Shown here in pieces: positions 11,031-56,798 of a stretch of 64,000 nt of DNA. The notes beneath the pieces were generated by a model. That model was not told where the DNA came from. It was given only the letters and a program-made list of their open reading frames with translations, and made no database searches. The translations under genes were made by a program, and so were the position numbers. Numbering within the stretch: position 1 is the first letter of the stretch; every line of letters starts with the position of its first letter. This DNA comes from Candidatus Bathyarchaeia archaeon (GTDB lineage Archaea; Thermoproteota; Bathyarchaeia; 40CM-2-53-6): contig JBEKSC010000006.1 of assembly GCA_049517415.1 (NCBI GenBank), positions 1 to 64,000 on the forward strand. The letters are read 5' to 3'.

Positions 11031-11128
11031 GGGCCGGTAGTTCAGCCTGGTTAGAAGACGAACGGTCTGGCCTGAACGTTGCCCTTACACGGCAAAGGTC
11101 GCCGGTTCAAATCCGGTCCGGCCCACCA
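11031..11128 (+). tRNA. tRNA-Val(TAC) with a 20-nt intron at 11055-11074 (D-arm, about 22/23); CCA encoded
   Basis: GGGCCGG/CCGGCCC acceptor stem, TTGCC-CTTACAC-GGCAA anticodon arm, GTTCAAATC T-loop; removing the insert restores D-stem GTTC/GAAC. Confidence 0.93.
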
Positions 11129-47295: not shown

Positions 47296-48174
47296 TCAGG
47301 CGTTCTCTGCTATTGATTCCTGCGGCTTCAGGACTCCTGTGAGGAGGTCTTTTTGAACTCGCAGATAGTCCTCGGGTGTCCCAACGTCCGCCCAGTAGCC
47401 CTCATGCTTGTAACCGAAGATTGTGCCTTCCCGCGTGAGCTTAGGAAACACATCTAACTCGAGCGAGGTTCGCCTTCCCTTTGGAATCTTGGCGAAGACG
47501 GACGGGCGAATCACGTAGACGCCAGCATTTACCCAAACTTCACCAGTTGTTTGTTTCCGCGGTTTCTCAACGAAGCTTACAACTCTGTTATCGTTATCGA
47601 GTTCTACGGCGCCGAACCTTGTCGGTGTCTTCGTCTTCGCTAAAACAACTGTGGCAAGCGAGTTAGATTTCTTGTGAGCGTATATTAATTTGTCAAGGTC
47701 GAGTCCTGAAAAAATCACGTCGCCATTGAGGGCGAGGAAATCGGAGTTTATCAACTGCTCAGCATTCTTGATAGCGCCTCCTGTGTCCAGGGGTTCTTTC
47801 TCGAAGCTGAAACGCAATCGTATCCCAAGCCGGTGCTCGTCCAAGTAGCGCACAATTTGTTCCTGAAGGTAGCCTACTGCCAGTACAATCCTATCAAATT
47901 CGTATCGTTTCAGGTACTCAATTTGGTACTCAATCAATGCTTGGTATCCTATCGGCAGAAGAGCTTTGGGTGTCGAGAAGGAGGTTGGCCTGACTCGAGT
48001 TTCAAGCCCACCGCACAGGATTAATGCTGTCCTTTCCGGGCGAAATTGTTCCATTCCAAGTTTCAAAAGAAATTCTGCTGTCTGGGATCGGTTGGTAAAG
48101 CGTGCACCGTCCACAAGTAAGTCCACTTTATGCATGAGCAATGGGTCTATGGTCATACTGAAACGGCGTTTCAT
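47296..48174 (-). CDS. N-terminal RHH domain fused to a sugar-phosphate nucleotidyltransferase-like domain
   Basis: MKRRFSMTID...NRSQTAEFLL followed by ILCGGLETR...PK...GD...FVEKP...YWADVGTP. Confidence 0.85.
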   Translation of the reverse strand: MKRRFSMTIDPLLMHKVDLLVDGARFTNRSQTAEFLLKLGMEQFRPERTALILCGGLETRVRPTSFSTPKALLPIGYQALIEYQIEYLKRYEFDRIVLAVGYLQEQIVRYLDEHRLGIRLRFSFEKEPLDTGGAIKNAEQLINSDFLALNGDVIFSGLDLDKLIYAHKKSNSLATVVLAKTKTPTRFGAVELDNDNRVVSFVEKPRKQTTGEVWVNAGVYVIRPSVFAKIPKGRRTSLELDVFPKLTREGTIFGYKHEGYWADVGTPEDYLRVQKDLLTGVLKPQESIAENA

Positions 48175-48183
48175 GGCTAACTA

Positions 48184-48213
48184 GTAATACACCATATCCT
48201 TTAACTGTATTAC
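48184..48213. promoter_or_regulatory. Candidate operator GTAATAC-N16-GTATTAC around a TATA-like core
   Basis: Perfect inverted 7-mers immediately upstream of the RHH gene start. Confidence 0.65.
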
Positions 48214-48240: not shown

Positions 48241-48354
48241 ATGGATACATGCCCGGCTTGCGGAAGCAGGGACTTGGAATTCGTAATGTCTCAGGAGCAA
48301 GCAGCTCAGATCAAATGCGCGAACTGCGTGAACATTTGGTGGGACCAAAGCTAG
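48241..48354 (+). CDS. 37-aa Zn-ribbon microprotein (paralog 1)
   Basis: MDTCPACGSRDLEFVMSQEQAAQIKCANCVNIWWDQS. Confidence 0.8.
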   Translation: MDTCPACGSRDLEFVMSQEQAAQIKCANCVNIWWDQS

Positions 48355-48517: not shown

Positions 48518-48547
48518 GTATTACCAGAAATCCTTTAATTGTATTAC
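48518..48547. promoter_or_regulatory. Second copy GTATTAC-N16-GTATTAC with the same ATCCTTTAA core
   Basis: Same spacing and core as 48184-48213; about 30 nt upstream of paralog 2. Confidence 0.65.
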
Positions 48548-48577: not shown

Positions 48578-48730
48578 ATGATGCGAGTTTGTCCGGCCTG
48601 CGGAAGTCGACGAATACAATTGAAACAGAGAAACACCTCCGAAGTGCGGATTGAATATTTGCCTGCGTTTGAAGAGTTCACCCAAGTTGTATGCGCTAAC
48701 TGCCACAACCTGTGGTGGGATCACAGCTAA
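48578..48730 (+). CDS. 50-aa Zn-ribbon microprotein (paralog 2)
   Basis: MMRVCPACGSRRIQLKQRNTSEVRIEYLPAFEEFTQVVCANCHNLWWDHS. Confidence 0.8.
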   Translation: MMRVCPACGSRRIQLKQRNTSEVRIEYLPAFEEFTQVVCANCHNLWWDHS

Positions 48731-48774: not shown

Positions 48775-51135
48775 CTAACTCTTCTTCTCTGCGCATTGCT
48801 TTCTTGCAGCGTCTAGAACGACTCTCTGTTCGACTTGGGCAACCATCCTTCGTGTGTGGACTATGACGTCTGGGTTCACGGAGATGCTATCTATACCTGA
48901 TTCAACAAGAAACTTCGCGAATTCAGGATAGACGCTCGGCGCTTGGCCGCAGATGCTTACGGTCTTACCGTAGCTGTGAGCTGTGTCGATGAGTTCTTTG
49001 ATTGCTCGTTTAACAGCGAGGTTTCTTTCGTCAAATAATGGCGCCAAGACTTCATTGTCCCTGTCGGCGCCGAGTATCAGCATTGTTAGGTCATTGCTGC
49101 CGATTGAGAAACCGTCCGCACCAGCCTTGCAGAACTCATCAGCCAATATTATGTTGCTGGGAATTTCTGCCATAATCCAGAGTTTGAAATCCTCTGACTG
49201 CACCAACCCTTCCTGTCGGAGGAGCTCACGGATTTTCACAAATTCGTTCACCGTGCGGTTGAAGGGGATCATGCACCAAAGGTTTGTCATACCCATCTCG
49301 TTTCTGACTTTCTTGACCGCAGCAATCTCAAGCTTGAATGCTGGCTCGAACCTCGGGTCAGTGTACCGGCTCGCGCCTCTCCAACCGATCAGCGGGTTAG
49401 CTTCTTTGATGGCACCCTCATATTTTTCTCCGCCTTCGAGTGTTGCGTATTCGTTCGTTTTGAAGTCGCTGAAGCGCAAAACTACCGGTCTCGGGTAGAA
49501 TGCCCTACAGATCGTTTCAAGTCCTGTTGACAACTTGTCAACGAATTCTTCAGGGTGCTTTTGTTCAATAAGCATCATAGGATGCTTCTTGACATGATCG
49601 CTTACGATGAATTCCATCCGTAGTAGGCCCACGCCGTCGACTGGTAACTGTGCGATTCTGTTGGCTAACTCTGGTTCACCAAGGTTGACGAAGATCTTTG
49701 TTCCGGTAACAGTTGGGTCCTTGAAAGCCGCCAATCCATCTGCTGCCGGTTGAGGTTTCGTTTCGAGCTCCGGGCTTTCTAGCACTATTCCCTCGTACAC
49801 GAGACCCATCTTTGCGTCAACTGTCACCTCTTCCCCGGTATGTATCGTGTGAGTTCCAATTTTGGTTCCCGTTATGCAGGGGATTCCTAATTCGCGGCTC
49901 ACAATGGCGGCATGGCATGTCATACCGCCGGCATCGGTGACGATTGCCTTTGACTTCTTCATTGTCGGCACCCAGTCGGGTGTGGTCATTTCTGTGACGA
50001 GGACTTCACCGTTCTGAAAGTCGCTTACGTGATCTACTGTTAGGATAACGTGTGCCTTACCCGCTCCGCGCCCAGGCGATGATGGAAGCCCCTTAAGGAT
50101 AATTTTCTTCTCCGCCGCAACGAGAGGCGTGGGTTTCTTAATTGGGCTCTTCTTGAGGGACCAAACTGTTTCGGGTCTAGCTTGCAGTATTAGGAGTTTT
50201 CCGGTCTGTGAGTCAAGTCCCCATTCAATGTCCATTACATGGCCGTAGTGTTGTTCAATAGTCAACGCGTATTTGGCTAGTTCAATTACTTCTTCATCTG
50301 TGATTACTTGCCGATCCTTGAGATCGTCTGGAACCTTCTTCTCCTCTGTTCCCCCGATCTTATTTCTCACAAGCATGATAGTTTTCGTGGGTATTTCCTT
50401 TCGGATGATTTTCAAGCTCCCCTTATCTACGTAGTAGTCGTCAGGAGTGACAGTGCCCTTCACGACGTACTCTCCTAACCCATAGGATGCTTCAAGCAGG
50501 ATCAGGGATTCATCGCCATTGGTTGGATCCATGGTGAACATAACGCCGCTGGATTCGGAGTAACACATCATTTGCACTATTGCAGAAAGTGCGACGTCCG
50601 CGTGTTCGAAGCCTTTCTGAACTCTGTAGAAGATCGCGCGGTCTGTGAACAGACTCGCATAGCATTCCTTGACGCTCTTAATCACGTTGCCTACTCCAGT
50701 AACGTTAAGGTAGCTCTCCTGTTGACCTGCGAAGCTCGCGTCGGGCAGGTCTTCAGCAGTTGCAGAGCTTCTAATGGCGACGAACGGGTTCTTGACTTTC
50801 TCTCGTTCGGCGAGTTTCTCATAGCCGTCGACTATGACTTGTTCAAGTTCCTTCGGCATCGTTGCGGAACCAATCATCCCCCTAATTTCAGCACCAACCT
50901 TCTGAAGTGTGATCGTGTCGTTTGGGTCCTTCAAAACCTTCAGGGAAGTAGCGATCTTAGATTCCAGCCCATTCTTCGCTAGGAACAACCTGTACGCATC
51001 AGCAGTAAGGGCGAAGCCGTAAGGTATCGGAACCTTCGTCTTGGAAGTCATTTCGCCCAGGCTTGCAGATTTACCGCCTACGAGTGGAACATCTTGCTTA
51101 CTGATTTGTTCGAACCAAAGTAGAAGGGGACCCAT
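48775..51135 (-). CDS. ppsA: Phosphoenolpyruvate synthase
   Basis: VGGKSASLGE, RSSATAED, GGMTCHAAIVSRE, DFKTNEY, SIGSNDL. Confidence 0.95.
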   Translation of the reverse strand: MGPLLLWFEQISKQDVPLVGGKSASLGEMTSKTKVPIPYGFALTADAYRLFLAKNGLESKIATSLKVLKDPNDTITLQKVGAEIRGMIGSATMPKELEQVIVDGYEKLAEREKVKNPFVAIRSSATAEDLPDASFAGQQESYLNVTGVGNVIKSVKECYASLFTDRAIFYRVQKGFEHADVALSAIVQMMCYSESSGVMFTMDPTNGDESLILLEASYGLGEYVVKGTVTPDDYYVDKGSLKIIRKEIPTKTIMLVRNKIGGTEEKKVPDDLKDRQVITDEEVIELAKYALTIEQHYGHVMDIEWGLDSQTGKLLILQARPETVWSLKKSPIKKPTPLVAAEKKIILKGLPSSPGRGAGKAHVILTVDHVSDFQNGEVLVTEMTTPDWVPTMKKSKAIVTDAGGMTCHAAIVSRELGIPCITGTKIGTHTIHTGEEVTVDAKMGLVYEGIVLESPELETKPQPAADGLAAFKDPTVTGTKIFVNLGEPELANRIAQLPVDGVGLLRMEFIVSDHVKKHPMMLIEQKHPEEFVDKLSTGLETICRAFYPRPVVLRFSDFKTNEYATLEGGEKYEGAIKEANPLIGWRGASRYTDPRFEPAFKLEIAAVKKVRNEMGMTNLWCMIPFNRTVNEFVKIRELLRQEGLVQSEDFKLWIMAEIPSNIILADEFCKAGADGFSIGSNDLTMLILGADRDNEVLAPLFDERNLAVKRAIKELIDTAHSYGKTVSICGQAPSVYPEFAKFLVESGIDSISVNPDVIVHTRRMVAQVEQRVVLDAARKQCAEKKS

Positions 51136-51320
51136 GTTTCAATTCCTCTCTCAGTTTCTTTGAAACGTAACACTTCTGGGCGGAAACCTTCAGAATAAGT
51201 AATATCTACGTAGGGTAATTACGAGAATTTAGATTGATAGGCGGCCTTTAAATCGAACACGATTACCAAAGCCTATCGCCACTTCTGCGAGATGCGCACT
51301 AGAGCTCAGTATAGCAGTTC

Positions 51321-53990
51321 TTGAGGAGAAACGGTTTGTACGTTTACTTGTTCGAAGAAGGCAGCACGAAGCTCCGGAACCTCCTTGGCGGCAAGGGGGC
51401 AGATTTAGCAGAGATGACAGGCCTCGGCCTCCCTGTCCCACCTGGCATGACCGTAACAACCGAGGCATGCAACTACTACAATTCTCACGGGTCAGAGTTC
51501 CCAGATGGGCTTGAAGACGAAATCCGCGTGAAAATGAAAACCATTGAATCGAGAACCCAAAGAACCTTCGGAGACGCTGCAAATCCGCTGCTGGTTTCCG
51601 TTCGGTCCGGTGCACCAATCTCAATGCCGGGAATGATGGATACGGTACTTAACCTTGGTCTGAACGACAAAACAGTGAACGGGCTCATCCGACAGACGAG
51701 TAACGAACGATTTGCGTACGACGCCTACAGACGTTTCGTTCAGATGTTCGGCAAAGTAGTACTCGGAGTTAGGGGCGACGCTTTCGAATCAATCATTCGA
51801 CAAAGCAAAGAAAGGTTGGGTTTGAAATCTGATGTTGAAGTCGACGCGAAGACCTGGGCGACACTAGTTCAAGAATTCAAAGGTCTTATCGAAAAGGAGA
51901 CGGGACAGGCCTATCCCGAGGACCCCAGGATCCAGCTGCAGATGGCAGTTGCGGCAGTCTTCCGATCATGGAATGGGCAACGGGCGGTCTTCTACCGTCT
52001 GACCAACAAGATTCCTGAAACGCTTGGGACGGCGGTCAATGTTCAGTCCATGGTCTTCGGAAACATGGGCACTGATTCAGGGACCGGCGTTTGTTTCACG
52101 AGAAACCCTTCATCGGGTGAACCAAAGCTATTTGGCGAGTTTCTCTTGAACGCGCAGGGCGAAGACGTCGTTGCCGGAATCAGAACGCCTAAACCAATAG
52201 CCCAACTAGCCGATGAAATGCCCACCGTCTACAGCCAATTGCTCGATGTGTGCAAACTCCTGGAACACCATTTCAGGGAAATGCAAGATATCGAATTCAC
52301 AGTTGAAAGAGGAAGGCTATTCATCCTTCAAACCCGCTCAGGGAAGCGAACCGCCACTGCCGCCGTCCGAATCGCTGCCGATATGGTCAAGGAAGAGCTG
52401 CTTACGAAGCAACAGGCACTGCTTCGGATTCTGCCCTCGCATCTCGAACAACTTGTCCACAAGCAGATTGATCCAAGCTTCAATGCCAAACCGATAGCTA
52501 CTGGCTTACCAGCGTCGCCTGGTGCTGCAACTGGGAAAGTGATTTTCGATACTGACGAAGCTTACTCTTTGGGCTCCAACGGAGAGGACGTCATACTCGT
52601 TAGGGAGGAGACTACACCGGAGGACATTCACGGTATGGTTGCCGCTAAGGGAGTGCTCACGAGCAGGGGAGGGATGACATCTCATGCCGCGGTTGTGGCC
52701 CGAGGGATGGGAAAGCCCGCCGTCGTTGGTTGCGAACAGATAAGCATTGATCTGGCCACTGATTCCTTGCAGACGCGCAGGGTTACGGTAAACAAGAATG
52801 ACATAATCACAATCGATGGGACCACTGGTAATGTGCTACTCGGCGTTGTGCCCACAATTGAACCGAAGCTAAGTGATGAAGCCCAGCAATTGTTAACCTG
52901 GGCTGATGAGACTAGAAAGCTCGGAGTCAGGGGGAACGCTGACACTCCAGAAGGGGCTATCGTGGCTAGGCAGTTTGGGGCTGGCGGGATTGGCCTTTGT
53001 CGAACCGAACGAATGTTCAACGCACAGGACCGGCTTCCCATTGTCCAAGAGATGATCCTCTCGACAACCGAAGAGGAGCGGTTTCGCGCTCTGGAGAAGT
53101 TGAGGCCTCTACAGAAGGAGGATTTCAAACAAATACTGCGCAATATGCATGACCTACCAGTTACGATCCGATTATTGGATCTTCCACTCCACGAGTTTCT
53201 ACCCAAATACGAAGAATTGACAGCCGAAGTTGCCTCGCTGAAGGCGACAGGCGCCGACGCGGATTTGCTGGATTCGAAGGAACGAATGCTCAGGAAAGTC
53301 ATGACATTGGCTGAACATAATCCAATGCTAGGCCATAGGGGCTGCAGACTTGCGATAAGCCACCCTGAAATTTACGAAATGCAAACTCGCTCTATCTTCG
53401 AAGCCGCAGGCGAATTGCAACGCGAAGGAGTTAGAGTTCGGGTGGAGATCATGCTCCCCCTTGTTGGAGCTGCCAATGAGATTCGATTCCTGCGCGAAAA
53501 GATAACCTCCGTGGCCTCTAAGGTGATGGAGGAGAAGCGCATCAATATCGATTACAAGATAGGGACTATGATAGAAGTTCCTAGAGCTGCATTGACGGCG
53601 GACGAAATAGCCCGCTATGCTGATTTCTTCTCCTTCGGGACAAACGATCTCACGCAGGCGACATTTGCATTCAGCAGGGATGATGCGGAAGCGAAGTTCT
53701 TCAAGGACTATTTCGACAAGAAGATCCTGAACTCCAACCCATTCGAGGTTCTTGACAGAGAAGGCGTTGGTAGGTTAATGCGCCTGGCTGTGGAGGCGGG
53801 TAGGAAGAGCAATCCTCAGCTAAAGGTTGGCATTTGTGGTGAACACGGCGGGGAGCCAAGCTCAGTTGAATTCTGCCATCAACTGAACCTCGATTATGTT
53901 AGTTGTTCCCCATACAGAGTCCCCGTTGCACGCCTCGTCGCAGCCCAAGCAGAAGTCAAGGAGAGAATGATTTCAATCAGCGAAAACTGA
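51321..53990 (+). CDS. ppdK: Pyruvate, phosphate dikinase
   Basis: LGGKGA, SVRSGA-x-ISMPGMMDT, GGMTSHAAVVAR, GTNDLTQ, CGEHGG. Confidence 0.96.
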   Translation: MRRNGLYVYLFEEGSTKLRNLLGGKGADLAEMTGLGLPVPPGMTVTTEACNYYNSHGSEFPDGLEDEIRVKMKTIESRTQRTFGDAANPLLVSVRSGAPISMPGMMDTVLNLGLNDKTVNGLIRQTSNERFAYDAYRRFVQMFGKVVLGVRGDAFESIIRQSKERLGLKSDVEVDAKTWATLVQEFKGLIEKETGQAYPEDPRIQLQMAVAAVFRSWNGQRAVFYRLTNKIPETLGTAVNVQSMVFGNMGTDSGTGVCFTRNPSSGEPKLFGEFLLNAQGEDVVAGIRTPKPIAQLADEMPTVYSQLLDVCKLLEHHFREMQDIEFTVERGRLFILQTRSGKRTATAAVRIAADMVKEELLTKQQALLRILPSHLEQLVHKQIDPSFNAKPIATGLPASPGAATGKVIFDTDEAYSLGSNGEDVILVREETTPEDIHGMVAAKGVLTSRGGMTSHAAVVARGMGKPAVVGCEQISIDLATDSLQTRRVTVNKNDIITIDGTTGNVLLGVVPTIEPKLSDEAQQLLTWADETRKLGVRGNADTPEGAIVARQFGAGGIGLCRTERMFNAQDRLPIVQEMILSTTEEERFRALEKLRPLQKEDFKQILRNMHDLPVTIRLLDLPLHEFLPKYEELTAEVASLKATGADADLLDSKERMLRKVMTLAEHNPMLGHRGCRLAISHPEIYEMQTRSIFEAAGELQREGVRVRVEIMLPLVGAANEIRFLREKITSVASKVMEEKRINIDYKIGTMIEVPRAALTADEIARYADFFSFGTNDLTQATFAFSRDDAEAKFFKDYFDKKILNSNPFEVLDREGVGRLMRLAVEAGRKSNPQLKVGICGEHGGEPSSVEFCHQLNLDYVSCSPYRVPVARLVAAQAEVKERMISISEN

Positions 53991-55845: not shown

Positions 55846-55878
55846 TGGTGGGCCGGGAGAGATTTGAACTCTCGAGCA
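55846..55878 (-). other. Orphan tRNA 3' fragment (variable loop, T-arm, acceptor 3' strand, ACCA); att-like
   Basis: Minus strand TGCTC-GAGAG-TTCAAAT-CTCTC-CCGGCCC-ACCA; 26/33 identical to the tRNA-Val(GAC) 3' end; no 5' half nearby. Confidence 0.8.
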
Positions 55879-55951
55879 GTCTTGAGTACTTTCATTCATC
55901 TCTGGTTCTTCTTGCTTTCAAGAAACTCTCTATATTCGGAAGAGTGGGCCA

Positions 55952-56725
55952 TTGATTCCGGAAGGAACGAAAATCGATATCATAACAAGAGTCCAGTCAG
56001 GTCAGTCGATTCGTCACGTTGCACAAGATCTTGGCATTCCACTTTCAACTGCTTACCATCACGGCCGGAGTTTCTGTAATCATCAATCGCGAATCGAGAT
56101 GAACATGCTGAGGCAAGGCCAGCTGGGTTACTTGCTAGGGATGTTCGTAGGAGACGGGAGTCTCATTCGGGATAAGCCTCGAGGGGAGTTCCTTGTCAAG
56201 ATTGCTTTGAACAGGAGAAGAGATTTGGACATTGTTCAATTCGTTACGCTAATGTTTGAAAAAGCAGGTAAGAAAGTCAACTTTCTAACTGAGCGAGGCA
56301 TGATCATAATTAGAGTCTGGTCTAAGATTTTCTATGAATTCATCGAAGATTACGTTAAGCTCGAAAGAAACCATCTATCCCATCATCACACGAAAATTCT
56401 CTTGCGCACCCAGCGATGGACTCGGGAGTTTGCTCTTGGTTTCATTGGCGGCCTAATAGACAGCGATGGCCATGTCGTTAGCAACTGGAAAGGCGGTCAT
56501 TACGGTGCGGTAGTGACTACGAGTAGTAGTTCTCTCAAACGACAACTCTGCAGTCTATGCGACGCTCTTGGTATCAATGTGACCAGCCATGTACAAGCGC
56601 GTGACCCCTTTCAGGGCAAGTCTCTTTATTCAGTGTATATCCGGTCGCCTGATTTGCATGCATTATGTGGAACACTACTTTCCGTAAAACATTCGAGGTT
56701 TCATGGTGGGCCGGGGCGGATTTGA
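55952..56725 (+). CDS. Free-standing double-motif LAGLIDADG endonuclease with N-terminal HTH
   Basis: YLLGMFVGDGS and FIGGLIDSDGH; SIRHVAQDLGIPLSTAY HTH; stop lies inside the antisense tRNA. Confidence 0.88.
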   Translation: MIPEGTKIDIITRVQSGQSIRHVAQDLGIPLSTAYHHGRSFCNHQSRIEMNMLRQGQLGYLLGMFVGDGSLIRDKPRGEFLVKIALNRRRDLDIVQFVTLMFEKAGKKVNFLTERGMIIIRVWSKIFYEFIEDYVKLERNHLSHHHTKILLRTQRWTREFALGFIGGLIDSDGHVVSNWKGGHYGAVVTTSSSSLKRQLCSLCDALGINVTSHVQARDPFQGKSLYSVYIRSPDLHALCGTLLSVKHSRFHGGPGRI

Positions 56726-56798
56726 ACCACCGACCACCTGTTTACAGTTTGTTGTCTCGTGTCAGGCAGGTATCCTAACCAGACTAGACGACCGGCCC
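56704..56798 (-). tRNA. tRNA-Val(GAC) with a 17-nt intron at 56741-56757 (about 39/40); CCA encoded
   Basis: GGGCCGG/CCGGCCC acceptor stem; CCTGC-CTGACAC-G[intron]CAGG; GGTGG-TTCAAAT-CCGCC. Confidence 0.9.

Follow-up and report, generated by a model that had tools for sequence, protein, structure and literature searches.

The fusion gene and its surroundings

The window analysed in this work, a stretch of 64,000 nucleotides, belongs to a Bathyarchaeia genome whose closest relatives are likewise labelled Bathyarchaeia. It carries on the minus strand a gene whose 292-residue product is most likely a one-component ribbon-helix-helix (RHH) regulator with a GDP-mannose-pyrophosphorylase-like domain, listed in databases as a plain enzyme. 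The features considered are the following.

47296..48174, minus strand: gene for the RHH + sugar-phosphate nucleotidyltransferase-fold fusion, 292 aa (ORF list, Pfam, AlphaFold2, fold matches)
48040..48174, minus strand: RHH DNA-binding domain, residues 1-45; strand R4-x-S6-x-T8, helices 11-20 and 29-43
47341..48027, minus strand: PF00483 domain, GMPP/HddC-like, residues 50-278; R60, K70, E125, D152, E203, K204 and D263 kept
47995..48012, minus strand: signature loop GGLETR, residues 55-60; G58E, genus-specific
48184..48213, no strand: candidate operator 1, GTAATAC-N16-GTATTAC; a TATA-like TTAAA between palindromic GTAWTAC heptamers spaced by 23 bp
48241..48354, plus strand: zinc-ribbon micro-ORF 1, 37 aa, two CxxC
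48518..48547, no strand: candidate operator 2, GTAATAC-N16-GTAATAC when read on the strand used for operator 1; local duplication of box and micro-ORF
48578..48730, plus strand: zinc-ribbon micro-ORF 2, 50 aa, paralog of ORF 1
48775..51135, minus strand: ppsA, phosphoenolpyruvate synthase (above the TIGR01418 cut-off), candidate target
51167..51205, no strand: weaker candidate operator 3, GTAACAC and GTAATAT 32 bp apart, 2 mismatches, between the divergent ppsA and ppdK
51321..53990, plus strand: ppdK, pyruvate phosphate dikinase (above the TIGR01828 cut-off), sharing the candidate site with ppsA

Elsewhere in the window, the region 55851-56798 holds a tRNA-Ser(TGA) (56704-56798, minus strand), followed on the opposite strand by a 257-aa ORF with HTH and LAGLIDADG-like parts (55952-56725). 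Next comes what remains of a second, degenerate tRNA 3′ end, near 55851-55880, and the whole region looks like the relic of an integration or of a mobile endonuclease. ARAGORN also reported a tRNA at 11031-11128 with an ambiguous anticodon, perhaps containing an intron.

The N-terminal RHH domain

The first-pass annotation had read the N-terminus as NikR/CopG-type, and both profile searches and structure prediction bear this out. PF01402 gave no match against the single 292-residue sequence, and it matched 7 of 23 aligned family members, with a best E of 9e-05. A profile of 14 N-terminal family stretches matched E. coli NikR (1q5v) over residues 2-43 with an E of 3.4e-05 and CopG weakly (E 0.077), and it ranked the fusion protein first in its own genome (E 1.1e-07). 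The N-terminal strand reads R4-F-S6-M-T8, with the alternating polar recognition residues followed by two helices that define the superfamily. In the AlphaFold2 model built from 106 sequences (pLDDT 89.4; an earlier model from 16 close sequences, pLDDT 55, was set aside), the N-terminus is extended and helices 11-20 and 29-43 are placed at pLDDT 86-95, the recognition strand itself being uncalled in this monomer; homodimer prediction scored 0.32 against a mark of 0.42. Judged by homology, residues 1-45 are a NikR-type RHH domain, for which dimeric DNA binding is predicted.

The same N-terminal profile also retrieves small stand-alone proteins of 48-145 codons throughout the phylum. A 64-aa stand-alone RHH-like ORF lies at G000 C6:67032-67226, outside the window and ~19 kb from the fusion gene, and viral contigs gave two weak RHH matches.

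A conserved candidate operator that moves with the transcription unit

As had been noted from the sequence at first reading, a GTAATAC-N16-GTATTAC box lies directly upstream of the fusion gene; it ends 9 bases before the ATG and sits in the gene's own promoter, which is common to the divergent zinc-ribbon ORF 1. Each GTAWTAC heptamer is a palindrome by itself, a point overlooked earlier, and the TATA-like TTAAA in the spacer is located about 30 bases before the ATG. Within one mismatch the box matched twice in the window, compared with 0.00 expected from 100 shuffles, and in the 2.65-Mb genome no N16 pair other than these two sites, operators 1 and 2, stays within one mismatch. Operator 2 is present in the source genome and three close relatives. 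A small zinc-ribbon ORF follows each operator on the plus strand, box and ORF having been duplicated jointly. Equivalents of this ORF were detected at 7 of 15 loci of orthologs and the box is retained where none was detected, so the micro-ORFs look like passengers or minor targets; micro-ORF 1 may be decaying, because several of its orthologs lack an ATG.

The proposal that the motif should recur upstream of orthologs held: the self box occurs at -38 to -40 in 20/20 loci of the genus, 19 of them perfect. In families f4 and f7 a GTAATAT-N15-GTAATAY form was seen directly adjoining the start codon at 8 of the 10 loci covered, and its first half-site overlaps a TATA-like element. In family f2 the regulator is the third gene of a gapI-pgk-regulator run, and the box is found 2.4 kb upstream, at the operon head, in 3/3 genomes; in genome G002 a type II and a type I GAPDH gene diverge from either side of it. 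The site thus relocates with the transcription unit and behaves as an operator would. At one locus, L067 (G087:C372), the start of the fusion gene is damaged and in frame with an upstream ORF (an 822-aa open frame) and the self box is missing, which may reflect an assembly error or decay.

Full-length fusions were found in 37 of 401 Bathyarchaeia genomes, many of which are incomplete, with the best six candidates at most scored per genome; all belong to one order and are distributed over the source genus (20, the source genome included), f4 (12), f7 (2) and f2 (3). Across all 105 genomes of this order, the strict box is present in 36/37 fusion carriers versus 9/68 other genomes, counts that are not independent since the genomes are related, and a reversed control pattern is present in 11/105. 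Because this comparison partly reflects the self site, non-self sites were tested gene by gene, as described below. Five genomes have a strict box and no fusion found with the 106-row profile, namely the f8 genomes G206, G137 and G291 as well as G122 and G239, and they represent either evidence against specificity or chance. The f8 sites are G206:C1:768, G137:C45:3054 and G291:C105:11352, the first two being near-identical. In a tree of 100 rows computed by a quick method, the 13 Bathyarchaeia fusions form one branch (SH-aLRT 99); the unfused proteins on whose side this branch lies were selected by similarity to these fusions.

Candidate target promoters in Bathyarchaeia

When the 2537 ORFs of the source genome were scored with a matrix trained on the self-promoter boxes, the fusion gene came first; the next rank was held jointly by a second ppsA (C1:121849) and the divergent gene at the same site. 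A relaxed scan returned 7 of the 2537 ORFs; they fall to five sites, and the self site, the ppsA/ppdK site at 51167-51205 and the second-ppsA site account for three of these. The source genome encodes two PEP synthases and one PPDK.

The divergent type II GAPDH gene is, from its promoter sequences, the most consistent candidate target. Its promoter contains the box within one mismatch in 11/11 carriers versus 1/8 other loci, 5 of the 24 matches having been dropped as cut by contig ends, and the sole non-carrier with the box belongs to a carrier genus, its genome being 73% complete. The box-bearing carriers belong to two families, and the same gene lacks the box in a non-carrier genus. This GAPDH-II-like protein is ~25% identical to ordinary GAPDH-II, has no Pfam match, falls below the cut-off and keeps the catalytic VSCNT; the gene was not found in the source genome with the queries used. 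Members of the family (353 aa) are encoded at L212:2109-3170 (G335) and in 23 genomes of the order.

Paired half-sites occur in the tpi/fbpA-gapI intergenic region of 11/12 f4 carriers, spaced by 22 bp (2) or 33 bp (9), and in 1/15 non-carrier loci, that one being in the same 73%-complete genome; 30 of the 49 fbpA matches were covered. Upstream of fbpA in three carriers of the source genus there is one half-site only, and an FBP aldolase/phosphatase (fbpA) query gave no match in the source genome or most of its genus. Since lone half-sites precede fbpA in 8/15 non-carrier loci as well, single halves are not specific and were rejected as evidence.

The half-site periods of 32-33 bp were adopted after viewing the fbpA loci and were then tested on ppsA and gapI. 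A helical-period pair with at most two mismatches precedes ppsA in 13/25 carrier loci versus 1/21 non-carrier loci (49 of 87 matches covered), and also in 3/3 loci from incomplete genomes of the source genus, with none in the f2, f7 and f4 loci examined. Upstream of gapI (42 of 76 matches covered, f4 genes left out as operon-internal), a paired site occurs in 3/21 carriers, all of f2 and none of the source genus, and a perfect half in 7/21 carriers versus 0/19. Several strict sites stand before genes for secreted or unrelated proteins, or before nothing recognisable; among these, boxes at L075 and L078 (G010, G034) and at L226 and L233 (G149) lie ahead of large proteins that are secreted or anchored in the membrane. 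These might be surface glycoproteins, in which case a link to NDP-sugars would make sense.

The putative regulon is therefore centred on lower glycolysis/gluconeogenesis, and it is patchy and lineage-dependent. The own-promoter site described at first reading is conserved as a self box, but its predicted role is not autoregulatory alone, as the box marks carbon-metabolism promoters too.

Distant members and a second subfamily

Beyond Bathyarchaeia, a single RHH pattern retrieved at least 589 confirmed metagenome matches, and the distant fusions come from sources named Diapherotrites, Aenigmarchaeota, Nanoarchaeota, Woesearchaeota, Altiarchaeota and Patescibacteria, the same taxa being seen in ESM Atlas clusters. 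In the 60 dereplicated metagenome loci used (20 of 80 were dropped as redundant or short upstream), GTATGA is the most enriched upstream hexamer (37 versus 4.2 expected). A period-10 repeat of T[CA]ATAY, that is, tandem TCATAC-type half-sites, is found in 26/60 upstream regions versus 0.37 expected; the strict repeat is absent from the other 34 and present in 9/192 neighbouring-gene controls. The distant members have an R-x-T-x-T recognition strand. Their commonest neighbour is PGM/PMM (15/60 loci), followed by PGI/PMI (5/60). Further neighbours are PGK, PFK and RpiB (2 each) as well as GlpX, a PPDK-like domain, enzymes of NDP-sugars and a sugar transporter; the putative DPANN/Patescibacteria regulon is drawn from these gene neighbourhoods.

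A second subfamily, one member of which is named Nitrososphaeria, occurs in 17/401 genomes of the phylum, all of one family. Its recognition strand is R-x-S-x-E in 15/15, and the GTAWTAC pair is lacking. A different TATA-flanking motif, drawn by eye from the same 15 sequences and including the TATA element, is present in 12/15 (shuffle mean 0.05) and in 0/37 and 0/80 of the other groups. In 12/15 the gene faces a divergent gapI-like ORF, identified from the NGxGRIGR with which it starts. Because motif and recognition strand change together, the fusion itself is indicated as the binder.

It had been proposed at the outset that the protein is a transcription factor. With an operator that is conserved in orthologs, moves to the operon head, tracks the fusion and changes with the recognition strand of the RHH domain, this is now a well-supported prediction, and that the fusion is the factor binding these boxes can be regarded as very probable.

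The nucleotidyltransferase domain: enzyme or sensor

The NTP-transferase domain annotated behind the N-terminal extension was recovered as PF00483 at residues 50-278, the sole Pfam match of the protein. The NCBIfam scan reached no model's cut-off: the GMPP model NF052502 gave 187 bits against 440, and the HddC/MurU tests also stayed below (NF049965, 142 against 300; NF045761, 118.7 against 250). Foldseek groups the C-terminal part with GDP-mannose pyrophosphorylases and HddC. Neither Pfam nor the AlphaFold2 model has a hexapeptide (LbH) domain in the 292-aa protein. This absence had been noted at first reading and is correct as an observation, but the single-domain HddC and MurU (chains of 216-237 aa) normally lack it as well, so it makes a weak argument for a repurposed sensor.

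In Leishmania GMPP, R21 is assigned to the phosphates, D118 and D226 to Mg, K170 to the sugar-side phosphate and E88 to guanine (PMC9424295); in our alignment to that enzyme they correspond to R60, D152, D263, K204 and E125, all kept. The Mg aspartates and the lysine of the F(V)EKP motif are thus present (D152, D263, E203, K204). The GMPP signature GGxGxR(L)xPLx5PK is departed from: the protein reads GGLETRVRPTSFSTPK, in which G58E and the PL are changed and R60 and K70 kept. G58 is the only one of six catalytic positions that is changed. Position 58 is E in 15/15 rows of the genus and G in 12/12 other Bathyarchaeia rows and 78/79 other rows, with GGLGTR retained in 9 of the 12 other Bathyarchaeia rows. 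The GGLETR loop to which the first-pass annotation drew attention is therefore real, but it is genus-specific and accompanied by intact R60, K70, D152, E203, K204 and D263, so that it says little about inactivity, and the protein may be active.

The wider family is more informative. All of G58, R60, K70, D152, K204 and D263 are intact in 20 of the 49 full-length distant fusions (11 of the 60 loci, with partial proteins, were dropped) versus 125/138 unfused relatives, a set selected on its scores with the query profile, a choice that biases it towards intact motifs. Losses concentrate on the triphosphate loop (R60, 26/49), E203 and K204 are kept in 49/49, and 12 of 20 box-bearing distant members are not intact at the catalytic positions. 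In subfamily 2, Gly replaces R60 in 15/15, with the nucleoside, Mg and sugar contacts intact. The triphosphate residues erode repeatedly and the sugar-phosphate residues stay, which suggests that a pocket for a sugar phosphate or NDP-sugar is under selection. We infer that selection tolerates loss of NTP/PPi handling, a trend that the acidic residue in the triphosphate loop of the source genus would fit; catalysis may be dispensable for the family, though some members may be active. The earlier idea of a repurposed sensor is thus favoured by family-wide erosion, while the two arguments first offered for it need correcting.

Proposed mechanism and alternatives

Based on these findings, we propose that the fusion is a regulator of central sugar-phosphate metabolism which binds the boxes and uses its nucleotidyltransferase fold mainly as a metabolite sensor, a reading that, from comparative sequence evidence, we consider reasonably probable. 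Each RHH dimer would read one heptamer, and two dimers would bind cooperatively, on the same face of the DNA and in the manner of the NikR tetramer, held together by the C-terminal domains or by cooperative contacts; the half-site periods observed are 10, 22-23 and 32-33 bp. The nucleotidyltransferase-fold domain would mainly bind a metabolite and thereby alter DNA binding. As ligand, the best guess is an NDP-hexose, for example GDP-mannose, with which the gluconeogenesis-PGI-PMM route ends. It would act as a feedback co-repressor and report glycan-precursor supply; hexose-1-phosphate is the next guess. Since the pair flanks or overlaps the TATA element at the own and GAPDH-II-like promoters, repression by blocking TBP/TFB is suggested there, and since the f4 fbpA halves lie upstream of a BRE/TATA-like sequence, activation is possible at that promoter. 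For TrmB, the regulatory direction is set by the position of the site relative to TATA (PMC10817205).

The mostly intact active site of the 292-aa protein also suits a trigger enzyme like trifunctional PutA (the precedent, PMC5293562), that is, a working NDP-sugar pyrophosphorylase doubling as repressor of its own gene and of the supply pathway, its catalysis coupled to DNA binding. Besides the match of R60, K70, E125, D152, K204 and D263 to Leishmania GMPP R21, the signature K, E88, D118, K170 and D226, the full signature survives in most f4/f7 orthologs and in 20/49 distant members, and PGM/PMM and PGI neighbours would supply substrate. We nevertheless consider this rather unlikely, because the active site is eroded in many relatives: residues of the triphosphate loop were lost independently (G58E; R60G in 15/15 of subfamily 2; deletions in distant members) with the RHH domain kept, and 12/20 box-bearing distant members are not intact. 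The genome also has four other NTP transferases, one of them longer and GMPP-like, and the candidate targets include triose-level enzymes, far from NDP-sugar synthesis.

The extent of the regulon, and the identity of its reader, could be questioned as well. With the only two perfect boxes of the genome both at the fusion locus, GTAATAT overlapping the TATA element in f4 and occurring alone in non-carriers, and gapI sites missing in most of the genus, the protein might be mainly a local autorepressor of itself and the zinc-ribbon micro-genes, the sites at metabolic genes being lineage-specific recruits or partly TATA/BRE. The perfect pairs at the GAPDH-II-like gene in 11/11 carriers of two families and in none of the non-carrier genus, the independent gapI links in f2, f4 and subfamily 2, and the persistence of the self box where the zinc-ribbon ORF is undetected make this improbable. 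It is less probable still, to the point of being hardly credible, that the boxes are read by another protein, either a stand-alone RHH protein or NikR, and that the fusion is simply a regulated enzyme. The half-site does resemble NikR sites, and stand-alone RHH proteins are common in the phylum, including the 64-aa ORF on the same contig; however, the box tracks the fusion (36/37 versus 9/68), the motif differs where the strand of the fusion differs, the family RHH profile found no NikR-length protein in the genome, and the targets are not nickel genes.

More broadly, the sensor reading can be extended, with marked caution and somewhat more chance of failing than of holding, to a widespread transcription factor family of DPANN, Patescibacteria and parts of Thermoproteota, in which a retired pyrophosphorylase fold would read the pool of NDP-sugar, the precursor of cell-surface glycans, and feed back on glycolysis/gluconeogenesis. 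If true, much of uncultured microbial life would have in this family its counterpart of TrmB as a carbon regulator, concealed by enzyme annotations and caught at several stages of the enzyme-to-sensor transition. For lineages of which few or no cultures exist, the analysis names a candidate regulator, its operator and a list of targets in central carbon metabolism that can be put to the test. How an enzyme turns into a sensor can be examined directly on members with intact and with broken loops, and purified protein would suffice to probe the RHH recognition code across the three types of operator. As relatives are annotated as mannose-1-phosphate guanylyltransferase or NDP-sugar pyrophosphorylase, pathway reconstructions may over-count the enzyme.

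Comparison with known systems

No description of the fusion or its regulon was found in full-text literature searches; domain-architecture tables in supplements or closed journals could list it, and the available part of PMC6393860 makes no mention of the fusion. The parts and the logic, namely the NikR architecture, an enzyme-derived sensor and TrmB-like targets, are known; the combination is not.

The best sequence and fold matches are GMPP (VTC1 7x8j, GMPPB 7d72, Leishmania 7whr) and HddC (5xhw), with which the fusion shares the Mg-binding aspartates, F(V)EKP and the guanine-reading Glu; it differs from them in having an RHH domain, no beta-helix domain, Glu for the signature Gly and scores under every NCBIfam cut-off. 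GMPPA, a non-catalytic paralog that binds GDP-mannose, exemplifies the pyrophosphorylase fold as an end-product sensor (PMC11228364), but GMPPA controls an enzyme partner, whereas the predicted output of the fusion is DNA binding. Trifunctional PutA likewise joins an RHH domain to a metabolic enzyme and is an autogenous repressor (PMC5293562); it is, however, a flavoenzyme switched by redox and membrane binding, with an unrelated fold and pathway. The TrmB family (TrmBL1, Tgr, haloarchaeal TrmB) exerts sugar-responsive control of gapII, ppsA and fbp in archaea (PMC10817205), but its DNA-binding and sensor domains are unrelated, Pfam matching no TrmB winged-helix or sugar-binding domain in the fusion, so that it is a functional analog only.

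The closest architectural relative is NikR (E. coli, Pyrococcus horikoshii; PDB 1q5v, 2bj1), which shares the N-terminal RHH domain, the R-x-[ST]-x-T strand, the NRS motif and a two-part operator. The E. coli NikR site is GTATGA-N16-TCATAC (PMC7055735); its half-site is shared with the DPANN-type members, which also have NikR's R-x-T-x-T strand, and its N16 spacer with the source genus; deltaproteobacterial NikR uses GTGTTAC (PMC545781). Unlike NikR, the fusion carries a nucleotidyltransferase fold (PF00483, residues 50-278) in place of the nickel-binding tetramerisation domain, and its sites lie at its own, gap, fbpA/tpi and ppsA promoters rather than at nickel-uptake genes, with a spacing that varies by helical turns and with half-sites arranged as direct repeats in the distant members.
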